Shown here: positions 19,634 through 39,708 of the stretch, piece by piece
Position numbering within the stretch: the first letter of the stretch is position 1
Layout: each line of letters opens with the position of its first letter
Assembly: GCA_965223905.1 (NCBI GenBank)
Contig: CBDCXV010000010.1
Coordinates: 1,440,001-1,504,000 of the forward strand
Length of the DNA: 64,000 bases
Direction of reading: 5' to 3'
Source: Candidatus Latescibacterota bacterium
GTDB lineage: Bacteria > Latescibacterota > UBA2968 > UBA8231
Translations under genes and position numbers: made by a program
The notes under the pieces: model-generated
What the model was told of the DNA's origin: nothing
Seen by the model: the letters and a program-made list of their open reading frames with translations, nothing else
The model's database searches: none

Positions 19634-19641
19634 GGGCCGGC

Positions 19642-19903
19642 AGCCCCGCCTCAGCCGCAGTTCGAGTTCGCCGCCTGACCTCCTCCGCGATTCGCTCCCT
19701 GCGCCGTGAGTCGTACGGAGGAGTGCGCCCTCAAACACCAGATTGACCCCCGAAACGCGCCGAAATCCTTTCCAACGGTGATCGGAGCATGCCCGAACGA
19801 TTCGGTGCGACGACAAGCGATTCATCAGGAACCCTGCCCAACCCTTGACAACAGTTTCAGCGAATTGATAGTACCGATATCAGTGCCCTTATTTTTCCTA
19901 TAC
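19642..19903 (+). mobile_element. ISCR/IS91 3'-end remnant, type A, with oriIS-like end
   Basis: Near-identical to about 25125-25385. Carries the last transposase codons (PQPQFEFAA*) and ends ...cccttatttttcctatac, resembling the ISCR oriIS consensus ...CTTCCTATAC. Confidence 0.85.
19845..19875 (+). promoter_or_regulatory. Candidate outward-facing sigma70 promoter in the type A ISCR end
   Basis: Perfect TTGACA at 19845-19850, then 16-18 nt to an imperfect -10 (GATAGT or TAGTAC). Identical copy at 25328. Confidence 0.4.
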
Positions 19904-20487
19904 ATTGGATGGACGATTCGTGCGTCGCTTATTGTCGCGATGACCGCTCCTTCCGGCCACACGCTGGCGCTTCCACGAATCAAAGGGGGTCACCGGATCG
20001 ATCTCGACGACGAGACTCTCGGACGCTGGTGCGGGTGGATCGCACTATCGCCCGCGCTCGACAGGCGGCGTATCGTACCTCCAAGGTGGGATTGCTGATC
20101 GACCGGCTCGACGTGCCGCATGCGCACGTCGACGTGGGGCTCAATCGTCGGATGCACGACATGGACCTCGCGTGCGTCGGTCCGTACCACAGTGACGAGG
20201 TGCTGTCTGCCGAAGCCGCGCATCCGCGCGGCTTCGGCATGGCCTTACAGGACCTACCTACCTTTCTGGACGTCGCCTTCAATTGCACTTTGTCAATATA
20301 TTTTGTTCGGGAGCGGAATATGTCCTGCTGTGGAAATCAGTATTCATCAATCTCACGTTGGTGGAGTACTGTCCGCGGACGATGGCGAGGCAGCGGCCGC
20401 TGGGTCGCGGGCGAATTGAACGGCGTCAATCGCTCTTAGGAACGCGCGTAGCCGCTTGGATGGGAATGGCGGCGGGATCTAAAGACC

Positions 20488-21444
20488 ATGATGAAGTTCA
20501 CAATGGAAGTCAGCGAAACGAACTATTCGAAACTCGATACCTATATAAAAGAGAAAGGCTATAGGGAGACTGCGGCGCGGGACATTCATCTGATTTTCGC
20601 CATCTCCCAATCTGAGGAGGCAGAATCAGCGTACGAAGCCCTCTTAGGTAGAGAGCTTCCGATTGTCGAGAGCTTCCACGATCTTGACGCCTCGATTGAG
20701 CTCGTGAAATTTGGTTTCTATAAGCAAGCGTTCGCCTCACTCCGCATGGGGCTTGACAACGGACTCCTTTCTGCATACTGGAATGCAGTGGGCTACGACC
20801 GGCCCGAATTCACACGATGGATCTATTCGAAAGAGAAGACACCGCGGAAAGATTTGAAGTTCTGGAGATCGATACGTCGACTCCCGGGAGTTGAGTGTTT
20901 CTTTGAGAGCTTCTCTTGCGAGAAGAAGATCAATGACCTAAGCGAACGGCTCAATGATTATATTCATACCAGAGGATTCCGGTACTCTACGTTCGGCGAG
21001 TTCCAGCGAAAGATAAGAACACAAAACCTCTACATAGAATGTGACGAGTGGTACGATCTGTTTGTGGCTACAACCCGGATCATCGTGACTCTGCAGTTGC
21101 TTGTCAAACCGAAGTTGACTGTCGTTGTACCTGATGAATTCCTTCTGAGAAAGTTTGGATCCTATGATCATATTCCTTTCTGTGGAGTGCTACTAGGAGA
21201 CTATTCGAATCGGCTAAAGTCGTGTGTCGGGGAGTGTGAGTACGACGCGATATCGACAATAGCAAGTACGAGAAACGAAGTCAAAGACGTGTGGAATTAC
21301 CTCGATGGTTGTCCTGACTTGACAGATGGCGAGATTCGAGAGCTCAATCGTGAATTCTGGAAGTCGACTGGACTGGACGATGATACTGTCGAAATCAGGG
21401 TCGACGAGATACTTCGCTCGATTCGTGGGTTTGAAACACAGTAA
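20488..21444 (+). CDS. Lower-GC hypothetical protein, possibly HEPN-superfamily (DUF5677-like)
   Basis: 318-aa intact ORF. Helical GFYKQAFASLRMGLD segment and LSERLNDYIH. Family call is pattern-based only. Confidence 0.6.
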   Translation: MMKFTMEVSETNYSKLDTYIKEKGYRETAARDIHLIFAISQSEEAESAYEALLGRELPIVESFHDLDASIELVKFGFYKQAFASLRMGLDNGLLSAYWNAVGYDRPEFTRWIYSKEKTPRKDLKFWRSIRRLPGVECFFESFSCEKKINDLSERLNDYIHTRGFRYSTFGEFQRKIRTQNLYIECDEWYDLFVATTRIIVTLQLLVKPKLTVVVPDEFLLRKFGSYDHIPFCGVLLGDYSNRLKSCVGECEYDAISTIASTRNEVKDVWNYLDGCPDLTDGEIRELNREFWKSTGLDDDTVEIRVDEILRSIRGFETQ

Positions 21445-37293: not shown

Positions 37294-38376
37294 ATGGCGA
37301 ACACCGCCAAGACAAATTGGGACAGTGAAACCGGCGACTACCGCGTTCCTTCTCTAATCTGGGACATGGATCGCGCCGACGAACTGGGAGGAGAACCGAA
37401 CGACTGGCTGAGCCGCCCTGGTGGTGATCATTTCGTGGCCATGTCTTTCCATTTTTCGCCCCACACGTTCCCGGCAGGGAGCGTCGAGAGCGAAGGTCGG
37501 TTCCACTGTGCTCCTACCCCTTACGCGCTCAACATTAGTCAGGACCCTTACAACAGTTGGGGGGTAGTTGCGCGGCTCAGGAGTCGCCTCGAATCGGAGC
37601 CTCTCCAGTTCTGGAATTGGCTGCCTGGCATCCTTATAGTCGATACCTCTGTCAGATTCACCTTACCAAATCCGATGCTGGCCGCCTACGCGGGGACGGA
37701 ATGGGCAGACAACGACTATCGGATTTTCTGCGGATTCGCTGACGTCGATCGGTATCTGACCATGCAGACGTCTTTCATTGAACAGATGAATCGGTTGACC
37801 GGTCCGGGGTGGGCCGGCTGGCCATACGGAGTACGGCAACTGCATGAAGCCTTGGTCGGATGGATCAAACCCGGAACGGAACTACCGGAGATCGTGTTGC
37901 TTGCGTCGGTTCGACAGTCGGGCAGCAAGATCACCGCACTCGACCCCCGGCTATATAACCCAGGCCCCACACTTGGCGCTTGGAATAGCGCGCCTGCGAC
38001 ATGGGACTGCCGGCAGGCAACCCGATTCCTATACCACGCCAAGCTCATGATCGGAGATGGCCTGCCGGAGATGGCCGTCACGACCGCCATATCCGCGCTC
38101 GAAAACGCCATTGCCGAGGTGCTTAGGTTCAAACTAGCTGACGTGAACAGAGCGGATTACCCGCTTCGACGAACCAAATTCCTATCCAGGTTCGAGAAGC
38201 TGCTACCTCAGTACGAAGTCACTCTCCCGAAGTCCTTGGCTAAGCCTATCAAACCGGCCTACTTGGCTCGAAATAAGATCGTCCATGGCGCCAGTGCAAT
38301 TAGGGTTGAATTGGCTGCGGAGCATGTAGCCAATATAGAGGAGGCGATCGCTTGGCTTTGGGCAAACGTGGATTAA
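37294..38376 (+). CDS. Hypothetical protein with C-terminal HEPN-like domain
   Basis: Helical C-terminus with AVTTAISALENAI and an RxxxxH motif, RNKIVH (38269-38286). GGGGAG RBS; lower GC. Confidence 0.65.
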   Translation: MANTAKTNWDSETGDYRVPSLIWDMDRADELGGEPNDWLSRPGGDHFVAMSFHFSPHTFPAGSVESEGRFHCAPTPYALNISQDPYNSWGVVARLRSRLESEPLQFWNWLPGILIVDTSVRFTLPNPMLAAYAGTEWADNDYRIFCGFADVDRYLTMQTSFIEQMNRLTGPGWAGWPYGVRQLHEALVGWIKPGTELPEIVLLASVRQSGSKITALDPRLYNPGPTLGAWNSAPATWDCRQATRFLYHAKLMIGDGLPEMAVTTAISALENAIAEVLRFKLADVNRADYPLRRTKFLSRFEKLLPQYEVTLPKSLAKPIKPAYLARNKIVHGASAIRVELAAEHVANIEEAIAWLWANVD

Positions 38377-39328
38377 CCGAGTTCCCGGTCGTCGCCGTGC
38401 AGCAGATCGTGGAGACGAGTGCGCGCCGCATCATGCGCTTGTGCACGAAACGCGGCCTGCTCGACGACACTGCAGCGGATCCGTTCACCGACGAGGAGCC
38501 CGTGCTAGCGGCTCTCACCGCGGCTTCGGTGCGAGGGCTCACCGCCACCGGGGCACGCGCCGGCCAACGCCTGCGCCGGGTCCTCAAAGATCCGGCCACC
38601 GGGGTGCGTACGGCGCCCTTGTGCCTTGCTTCGCGCGGCTTTTCCCTGCATGCGGCAACGCCGATCGCAGGCCCTGACCGGCGGGGGCTCGAACGCTTGT
38701 GCCGCTACGTGGCCCGACCGGCCCTGGCGGGAGGGCGTCTGCGCATTCTCGATGCCGACCCTCTTTCCTTCGCGCTCAAAACGCCGTGGTCGGATGGGAC
38801 CCCCCATCTCCTGCTGTCTCCGATGGAACTGTTGGAGAAGCTGGCGGCTCTGGTCCCCCCGCCCCGGTTTCATCTCCTGCGCTACCACAGGGTCCTGGCC
38901 CGCGACCTCATCGTGCCGGCCCAGCCGGTTGCCGAGCCGTCGGCGGCGGACGCCTCGGCGAGCGCTGCGGCCTGCGGCCATCGACTGCGGTGGGCGACCC
39001 TGCTGGCGCGGGTGTTTTCCTCCGACCTCAGCGAATGCCCGGCCTGCGGCTGTCGCCTGCGGATCGTCGCCGCCCTGACCGGTCCGACCTCGATCCGGAC
39101 CTGTCTGGAGGGGGTAGGGCTGCCGGCGATGCCCCCGCCGAGAGCCCCGCCTCAGCCGCTGTTCGAGTTCGCCGCCTGACCTCCTCCGCGATTCGCTCCC
39201 TGCGCCGGGCGGACGGAGGGGTGTGCCCTCAACGGTCCTCAGGCCCCGGATTGATCCGGATACGGGCCGACAGGCAACTAAATAAACTGTACTGCTAGCT
39301 CGGTCGAAGGACGGGCAAACGATCCTCC
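38377..39328 (+). mobile_element. ISCR remnant (3' half of transposase), oriIS end lost
   Basis: GFSLHAA, LERLCRYVARP (single catalytic Tyr, ISCR-type), LKTPWSDGT and RYH. Similarity to the type B copy stops at 39328; starts right after the TAA of the HEPN-like gene. Confidence 0.9.
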
Positions 39329-39708
39329 AGTCCGTACCGATACTCGGTACGGGAAACAACCCCGTTCCAGGAAGCATGAGAAATGCACCTTATTTCAGCC
39401 CACTTACTGTCCAGTTGACGGGGTACACCTCAATAGACCACATTCCCACAGAAATCTCGCCACCCTCCTTGGGAACTCTGAAAGCGCCATCATCAACAGG
39501 CTCGTTAAGGGTGTCTTGGGTTGCCCTAGGATATATTCCTATGGTTACTCATTATGTGGTGGATCCCTTTAGGGAGACCGAGGGGTGGCCGGGGTCAGGT
39601 GAAGGCGCGCCCCCTCCGCGTGTCTACGTCCCGGAAGCTGCACGCCGGGTCATCATGTAGGATGATGCGAACAGGAGACGCTGAACCAATCCCTCAAGGA
39701 GCAATGAA

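Follow-up and report, generated by a model that had tools for sequence, protein, structure and literature searches.

The 64,000-nt stretch analysed here (the window; C10:1440001-1504000 of G000, a 7.92-Mb, 11-contig metagenome-assembled genome of Candidatus Latescibacterota) carries, between 19.6 and 39.4 kb, five co-oriented remnants of ISCR elements, which belong to the IS91 family of insertion sequences (IS), with accessory genes and gene fragments between them. On balance, we think it probable that this Latescibacterota lineage holds many accessory-gene arrays seeded by ISCR, that this locus is one of them, and that it was made by origin-primed, one-ended copying. The evidence, drawn from sequence comparison, consists of a conserved 3' end that contains the origin (oriIS), clustering and co-orientation of the remnants across the genome, a marked asymmetry between their two ends, one exact and recent copy bounded by oriIS, fragments of an RND efflux transporter gene that travel with ISCR pieces, and units reshuffled between sister genomes.

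ISCR remnants in the window

Remnants were mapped by repeat finding, by domain scans (PF04986 and PF14319) and by blastn with the genome's own intact copy as reference; positions within the element are written as q coordinates of that reference, C1:927361-929611. The mapping confirms what a sequence-only reading of the window had described, namely five ISCR remnants on one strand, four of them truncated on the 5' side at differing points and one internally deleted. The terminal CCTATAC that it had seen in four remnants is present in R1 to R4, and none of the five encodes a complete transposase, as it had also stated, since the longest transposase-derived frame in the remnant range is 275 aa. 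The remnants and the RND sequences that accompany them are as follows.

709-862, minus strand: sixth, weak ISCR remnant (C10:1440713-1440862, q1482-1629, 76.7%), last member of an adjoining minus-strand cluster
16493-19633, plus strand: RND efflux transporter gene, a 1046-aa open reading frame (ORF), conserved left anchor of the array
19636-19905, plus strand: R1, from about q1714; last ~12 transposase codons and a type-B origin tail; CCTATAC at 19897-19903
24752-25387, plus strand: R2, from q1341 to a type-B origin end; Y2_Tnp C-terminus; CCTATAC at 25379-25385
26835-27200, plus strand: 121-nt copy of the RND 3' end (26835-26955, 93% identity) and the ~240-nt spacer that comes after the RND gene in sister genome G002, carried with R3
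~27200-28257, plus strand: R3, both ends present; q200-591 fused to q1328-1967; CCTATAC at 28249-28255
34283-34663, plus strand: R4, from q1598 to the origin end; CCTATAC at 34655-34661
38394-39328, plus strand: R5, q950-1890; the last ~77 nt, including CCTATAC, are gone

The third remnant had been placed at about 26966 and has to be moved: 26835-26955 is the copy of the RND 3' end, 26956-~27200 is the spacer, and ISCR sequence starts at ~27200-27224 with a hairpin at the 5' end of R3 and a Zn_Tnp_IS91 match in the domain scan. The deletion joint of R3 (q591/q1328, at 27609/27612) removes the catalytic core. R5 lost its origin end to a short repeat that is also present at several other loci; this repeat of ~110 nt, at 39318-39440, has copies at at least five other loci (85-99% identity) and may be a miniature element. 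Three of the five stumps begin 2-17 nt past the stop codon of an intact co-oriented gene (the RND gene, the defence candidate tmtA and a 360-aa gene), for which selection against further trimming is the simplest reading. As for the sixth remnant, the origin ends of its minus-strand cluster on the left and of the plus-strand array on the right point outward from the KatG / MoxR-vWA / RND block that separates the two.

The element, its intact copy and its ends

A genome search for an intact ISCR transposase, as the sequence-only reading had proposed, found one at C1:927553-929327, an open 456-aa gene with a perfect CCTATAC end. The protein combines the IS91 zinc-binding domain (PF14319) with the Y2_Tnp core (PF04986), and HLH and RY motifs can be read in its translation; domain and model scans returned these two domains and no helicase domain. 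Its best NCBIfam model is ISCR clade Ia, at 326.7 bits and thus under the curated cut-off of 925, and the IS91 equivalog model scores 95 bits against a cut-off of 125. Identity to ISCR copies from clinical plasmids is 39-42%. By eye, the motif region of the translation contains a single tyrosine, which is the ISCR pattern.

The 3' end, ...AAAAAAGGTGCCTCATTTTACCTATACTT, is sharply bounded and closes 16 aligned genomic copies. It is closely resembled by the end of a clinical plasmid ISCR copy, ...AAAAGGTGCTTTATACTTCCTATACTCAG, and the ending ...AAAAGGTGC...CCTATAC is common to both elements. All 16 matches of ATTTT[ATC]CCTATAC in the genome are ISCR ends. A palindrome is predicted 20-45 nt from the origin end, and CCTATA is followed by CTT in 15 of the 16 type-A ends and by CAT in two type-B ends, bases that may belong to the element or to the target. 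The 5' boundary region, with a short hairpin common to four copies, is approximate. We also observed two stumps with unlike 5' breakpoints (C10:1622182-1622318 and 1628654-1628790) that share the altered end ...TTTTACCTCGTATAAT... and are 92% identical over the next 137 nt; the stumps have either a tail of a third type or a small element that entered both at one and the same position in oriIS.

In IS91, according to a passage of PMC13181058, the right end is the one that holds oriIS, which follows the transposase gene and adjoins the target tetranucleotide, and terIS lies upstream. Since that origin is downstream of the gene, the stumps keep oriIS, which supports reading them as pieces of an ISCR-type rolling-circle transposon that have retained their origin.

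Clustering, co-orientation and end asymmetry

Merging the blastn matches to one reference copy gave 48 remnants in the genome, 44 of which fall into nine clusters spanning 311 kb, or 3.9% of the 7.92 Mb. Adjacent remnants within clusters lie on the same strand in 34 of 35 pairs, the sole switch being in the window, between 709-862 (minus) and R1 (plus). Genome-wide scatter in random orientation, which the sequence-only reading had named as the pattern that would contradict it, is therefore not what the genome contains. Because every motif match is an ISCR end and nearly all neighbouring pairs are co-oriented, the remnant pattern is not due to chance.

The two ends are preserved very unequally. 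The 3' end is reached by 24 of the 48 remnants, all type A, and by five type-B tails in addition; the 5' end is reached by five of the 48, three of which have both ends. The 5' breakpoints are arbitrary and spread over the whole element, and no shared motif, as premature site-specific termination might leave, was found among the 48 junctions listed.

Two further regularities were considered and did not hold up. A cause of the co-orientation in replication direction was rejected, as orientation agrees with the GC skew of the flanks in only about half of 16 clusters. Close packing of stop codon and stump, seen in the window, is not a general rule, as a same-strand frame of at least 300 aa ends within 35 nt of only 5 of the 48 junctions. 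With respect to a possible outward promoter, the first downstream ORF is co-oriented at 15 of 27 sites of a loosened motif, some of them outside mapped remnants; this count rests on a crude gene caller that miscalled some genes, including two in the window.

A recent origin-bounded copy and travelling RND ends

A first sign of origin-primed copying is at C10:371064-372417, a 100% identical copy of the 1354 nt at 374212-375565. The copied unit joins 765 nt from the 3' portion of a gene to an ISCR stump from q1387, and it has no transposase. The two copies cease to match exactly after CCTATACTT at one boundary and within the reading frame at the other, and the original continues upstream into the rest of the gene. 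Such a footprint is as would be expected of copying from oriIS to an arbitrary stop. Because the unit has no transposase of its own, the enzyme would have to act in trans. No ISCR or other homology was found at the upstream junction of the copy, and no restored reading frame was found across its insertion site, which is 1.8 kb from the nearest oriIS.

A second line of evidence is a series of RND fragments. In the window, ~120 nt of the RND 3' end are joined through the spacer to R3 (at 26835), and at C10:1645699-1647172 a longer piece of ~450 nt is linked to another stump by way of that spacer; a third, orphan fragment of the RND 3' end lies at C10:1652049. In the sister genome G002, the succession of RND gene, spacer and ISCR 5' end is still in place, broken by an 880-nt insertion. 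Upstream DNA appears, from these fragments, to have moved together with ISCR pieces. The series also contains joints that look like deletions in place: the spacer is joined to q1054 at C10:1646248, and at R1, where ~14 nt of spacer remain after the RND stop codon, the joint to q1714 shows a GCCCC microhomology.

Variable content in related genomes

Y2_Tnp matches, mostly to C-terminal pieces, were found in 19 of the 41 genomes scanned (G000 and 40 relatives), including 17 of 24 other members of the family. A like array architecture is present in G002, G019 and G020, which are assembled in one to three contigs, and G016 has many Y2_Tnp matches. Across ten loci from three related genomes, all 31 ISCR pieces are co-oriented, with the proviso that these loci overlap partly and a few copies are counted twice; several of the pieces are internally deleted, two-ended and like R3.

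The RND locus itself differs between relatives, as the sequence-only reading had suggested should be checked. The RND gene is 97.5% identical to that of G002 and 91% identical to that of G001, and synteny with both stops at its stop codon. Downstream, G002 carries an array with other units in another order: it contains none of the window's cargo, and it has blocks in common with G000 arrays at C10:1601-1618 kb and 375-377 kb, at 97.6-99.8% identity and with the order changed. G001 has no ISCR within 40 kb after the RND gene. The window's four main cargo pieces, each searched for on its own, were found in none of five related near-closed genomes, bar one weak match of 66%, and contigs from other public runs contain diverged versions of these pieces at ~90-99% identity. 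A DNA search of the family with the whole array gave only IS or ISCR matches among the nine candidates scored per genome.

Proposed origin of the arrays

We propose that an ISCR element once lay ~240 nt downstream of the RND gene. An ISCR/IS91 transposase would start rolling-circle copying at oriIS, 3' of its gene, and run back through the element; where termination is unreliable, upstream DNA of arbitrary length would be copied along, as in one-ended transposition, which makes up 11-53% of events for IS91 in figures quoted from PMC13181058. Stumps that lack the transposase and keep oriIS could then be driven in trans by one or more intact copies elsewhere, and repeated copying with re-insertion nearby would give the arrays. 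Deletions on the 5' side, recombination among stumps and insertion of other IS elements may have contributed. The outcome would be what is seen: co-oriented stumps that nearly always keep oriIS, with imported genes and fragments between them. Trimming of the 5' side with oriIS kept, illustrated by an array unit whose ISCR breakpoint is at q1330 in G000 and at q1436 in G002, may reflect aborted rolling-circle events or ordinary illegitimate recombination.

Several results weigh against this proposal. Clean recent copies bounded by the origin number one. The 5' truncations of the RND series look, from their joints, like deletions in place and not like products of copying. Remnants are mostly 72-97% identical to one another, so most events must be old. 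Besides the one intact master copy there is possibly a second, on C11, and this intact-looking copy is without the CCTATAC end. A 4.2-kb block that is 99.9% identical between two arrays ends inside an ISCR stump and not at oriIS, and several blocks that G000 and G002 have in common extend past origin ends. Circular junctions, for which the sequence-only reading had proposed a search of reads, and excision junctions could not be read in the short contigs of four public runs; the stump-to-stump joints in these contigs are in register and fit other ISCR copies, and so are uninformative on circles. From the contigs that start matching at 19906 (three runs) and 25388 (two runs), each 2 nt past CCTATAC, we draw no inference. 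Finally, rolling-circle movement of ISCR elements has never been shown experimentally and some ISCR boundaries are disputed, according to a passage in PMC9376610. Given the 4.2-kb block, the blocks that cross origins and the landing 1.8 kb from an oriIS, it is probable that rolling-circle copying, deletion and recombination each played a part.

The sequence-only reading had proposed a rolling-circle gene-capture platform whose gene-plus-origin units stack like integron cassettes. The capture half of that proposal is supported, with oriIS-keeping ISCR remnants, an intact transposase copy and upstream DNA that appears to have been co-mobilised from the origin. The stacking half is not supported: 5' junctions are arbitrary, units hold 0-4 genes, there is no fixed site, and conserved blocks extend across origin ends. 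A wider claim would make ISCR a lineage-wide, integrase-free platform for accessory genes in Latescibacterota, with transposase-less units of cargo and oriIS routinely driven in trans by a few masters, re-inserted preferentially into arrays in the same orientation, and swapped between loci and strains as integron cassettes are, though with sloppy boundaries. We hold this wider claim to be doubtful.

Other explanations

Of the competing accounts, the one that survives best is a passive graveyard, in which full-length ISCRs inserted independently into dispensable islands and decayed there, the genes between them never having been moved by ISCR. Arbitrary 5' junctions, the apparent deletions in place in the RND series, the age of most copies and the presence of other IS families, as expected of permissive regions, are all what it predicts. 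Random decay, however, leaves the excess of 3' ends (24, plus 5) over 5' ends (5) unexplained, and the same is true of the 34 co-oriented pairs out of 35, whose orientation does not follow GC skew, of the 100% identical origin-bounded copy, and of the RND ends that move with ISCR. We regard a pure graveyard as possible and rather unlikely.

Diverged stumps might instead act as portable homology, so that looping-out and re-integration, or unequal crossing-over, shuffle and amplify units with no transposase involved. Every unit is flanked by direct repeats of 300-900 nt at 85-97% identity, and homology-driven integration always gives direct orientation; units are permuted between the sister genomes, and in one syntenic block the stump is 96.1% identical, against 99.8% and 97.8% for the adjoining cargo, as from gene conversion. 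Recombination nevertheless has no way of producing fresh 5' truncation points and leaves the end asymmetry unexplained, and the upstream junction of the recent copy lacks the homology that this account needs. Single-crossover integration of the 4.2-kb block was also rejected, the stump half that should be ~100% identical being 94.8% identical. Recombination as the main engine is, in our estimate, quite unlikely.

A platform of uniform gene-plus-oriIS cassettes, inserted site-specifically beside a resident oriIS with no integrase, is largely refuted and we consider it very improbable. The tight spacing of three of the five window stumps fits it, as do the intact cargo genes that, in our own annotation, directly follow four window oriIS ends in the same orientation, and the ISCR cleavage site at the oriIS boundary would be a natural docking point. 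Genome-wide, in contrast, neither the stop-to-stump spacing (5 of 48 junctions) nor the co-orientation of downstream ORFs (15 of 27 sites, with crude gene calls) holds up, units contain fragments, several genes or none, and the recent copy landed away from any oriIS.

A mis-joining of repeats in the assembly is hardly credible: the metagenome-assembled genome has an estimated contamination of 5.1% and no short-read contig spans a whole stump, yet contigs of a public run cover the unique cargo at 100% identity, the same architecture recurs in the relatives assembled in one to three contigs, alongside the many Y2_Tnp matches of G016, and the repeats are not collapsible because they differ by 3-28%.

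Cargo of the arrays and defence content

Under origin-primed copying, which we continue to favour, the genes between stumps would be imported cargo. In the window, units hold up to four genes each, along with other insertion sequences and gene fragments, and the lower GC content that the sequence-only reading had noted for several genes holds: the contig as a whole has a GC of 0.64, and the cargo at 20-22 kb and at 36-38 kb has values of 0.52-0.54 and 0.57-0.58. The features between the remnants are listed below.

19906-24751: cargo 1, between R1 and R2
20488-21444, plus strand: 318-aa gene of no known family, low GC (cargo 1)
~21611-23101: IS1182-like insertion sequence, DUF772 / DDE_Tnp_1 (cargo 1)
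23067-23498, minus strand: DUF433 gene (cargo 1)
23354-24632, minus strand: two frames, likely fragments of ABC permease and binding-protein genes, read from the translations; Pfam gave no match (cargo 1)
25388-26834: cargo 2, between R2 and the RND-end copy
25447-26103, plus strand: NYN-domain gene (cargo 2)
26156-26461, minus strand: DUF1330 gene (cargo 2)
26508-26792, minus strand: weak alcohol-dehydrogenase-like fragment (cargo 2)
28706-34282, plus strand: tmtA, single-gene Tiamat candidate of 1858 aa; stop codon 2 nt before R4
34871-36792, plus strand: cargo gene with a weak HNH-like match (HNH_5, E 8.6e-4, below the cut-off), split by an IS3 element
35158-36420, minus strand: IS3-family insertion sequence (rve, HTH_Tnp_1), with copies at 98% identity elsewhere
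37294-38376, plus strand: 360-aa cargo gene of no known family, resembling unnamed bacterial clusters; stop codon 17 nt before R5

The IS1182-like element is skipped (joint 21610>23102) in some contigs of all four public runs, and its insertion is therefore polymorphic in natural populations. A different IS, with a UPF0236-type transposase of 481 aa, lies at 40362-41944 and 48543-50117; it is probably active now, because the genome holds 13 other copies at 99.7-100% identity.

TmtA matches its PADLOC profile at E 5.2e-213, with residues 37-1854 aligned to profile positions 7-1779 of 1782, and in Pfam has sacsin-like and NOV_C matches below or near the cut-off. By its PADLOC match, tmtA is a full-length candidate for the Tiamat defence system, of which TmtA is the single protein.

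PADLOC was run on 128 crude ORFs from five arrays and on 87 control ORFs from three ordinary regions. The array set gave single matches to TmtA, mREase_IV (a type IV restriction enzyme), HEC-06, PDC-S01, Orf5 and mad3, two each to PDC-S31 and PDC-S65, and five to HEAT-ARM_XIII; the control set matched a type I restriction system, mad2/mad3 and a reverse transcriptase. The locus had been read from sequence as a defence island in the making. One full-length TmtA in the cargo is in keeping with this, but PADLOC matches are not clearly commoner among the array ORFs than among the controls, and, since a restriction/MADS island chanced to lie within the control regions, defence enrichment is unproven. 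The commonest Pfam families in the array set are Y2_Tnp (10 ORFs), GFO/IDH/MocA oxidoreductases (8) and WD40 (5). Long, internally repetitive genes of WD40 type are found in the arrays at C1:944-953 kb and C10:528-531 kb.

To the left of the RND gene, at 3883-15133, a MoxR AAA+ gene of low GC (bpMoxR, E 2.6e-49) and one for a vWA protein precede two ORFs of little or no family signal, one with a weak GHL10 match, after which comes a 1440-aa protein that carries an M9 collagenase domain and WD40 propellers. Going by Pfam family description, this block looks like a MoxR-vWA-beta-propeller ternary conflict system.

Relation to known systems

The general picture of ISCR elements is reportedly that of Toleman and colleagues from 2006. 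The closest parallels to the arrays are the ISCRs of resistance regions, such as ISCR1 in complex class 1 integrons, ISCR2 (CR2-sul2) and the ISCR28 sandwich. The present element falls into the same clade by its best model, at a sub-cut-off score and with ~40% identity, and shares the origin-end motif; in both settings unrelated genes adjoin oriIS, and partial copies that keep oriIS flank captured genes. An excerpt of PMC12772301 describes gene capture beside oriIS and partial copies with oriIS for clinical ISCRs, and cites the "sandwich" of remnant oriIS, gene and ISCR for ISCR28. Unlike the clinical elements, the ISCRs here form dozens of stumps in nine clusters on one chromosome of an uncultured phylum; the array has no resistance gene or integron, its cargo being accessory, metabolic or of defence type; and there is natural evidence of a transposase-less unit being copied.

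IS91, IS1294 and IS801, with an essential oriIS and a leaky terIS, carry upstream DNA of variable length, as is proposed here. Part of PMC13181058 gives CTTG or GTTC as the target tetranucleotide next to oriIS in IS91 and single-strand circles as intermediates. In the present element a short fixed sequence, CCTATA-CTT in 15 of the 16 type-A ends, can be compared with it at the oriIS boundary; unlike IS91, the present transposase stays below the IS91 equivalog cut-off and has a single tyrosine.

Integron arrays share with the present ones the co-oriented units, the variability among close relatives, a conserved recombination-type end and, in places, tight gene packing. They differ in that the present arrays lack an integrase and a single point of insertion, and units are irregular with arbitrary junctions. 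No site-specific recombinase was found among the ORFs of the window array, where the only integrase-fold match is the DDE transposase of the IS3 element. Eukaryotic Helitrons, which are also rolling-circle HUH elements with asymmetric ends that collect gene fragments through failed termination, offer an analogy only: the present element has no helicase domain, and the end it keeps is the initiation end.

The locus is thus a large-scale variant of known ISCR gene capture and not a new integron-like machine. Its novelty lies in its scale, in its host phylum, in cargo other than resistance genes and in a natural instance of a unit being copied without a transposase of its own. The literature we searched, which left many subscription papers outside it, describes neither large ISCR arrays nor defence genes carried by ISCRs in genomes from the environment.

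ISCRs have been blamed for assembling multi-resistance regions, and this genome and its relatives hold a natural ISCR record on a far larger scale than any clinical plasmid, in which one master copy and defined stumps make testable substrates for trans-mobilisation. The main interest lies in the natural evidence for origin-primed mobilisation in trans, and in the role of ISCR in driving the turnover of accessory genomes within an uncultured phylum. ISCR-type capture would thus shape accessory genomes, including defence genes such as the Tiamat candidate, beyond the antibiotic setting.

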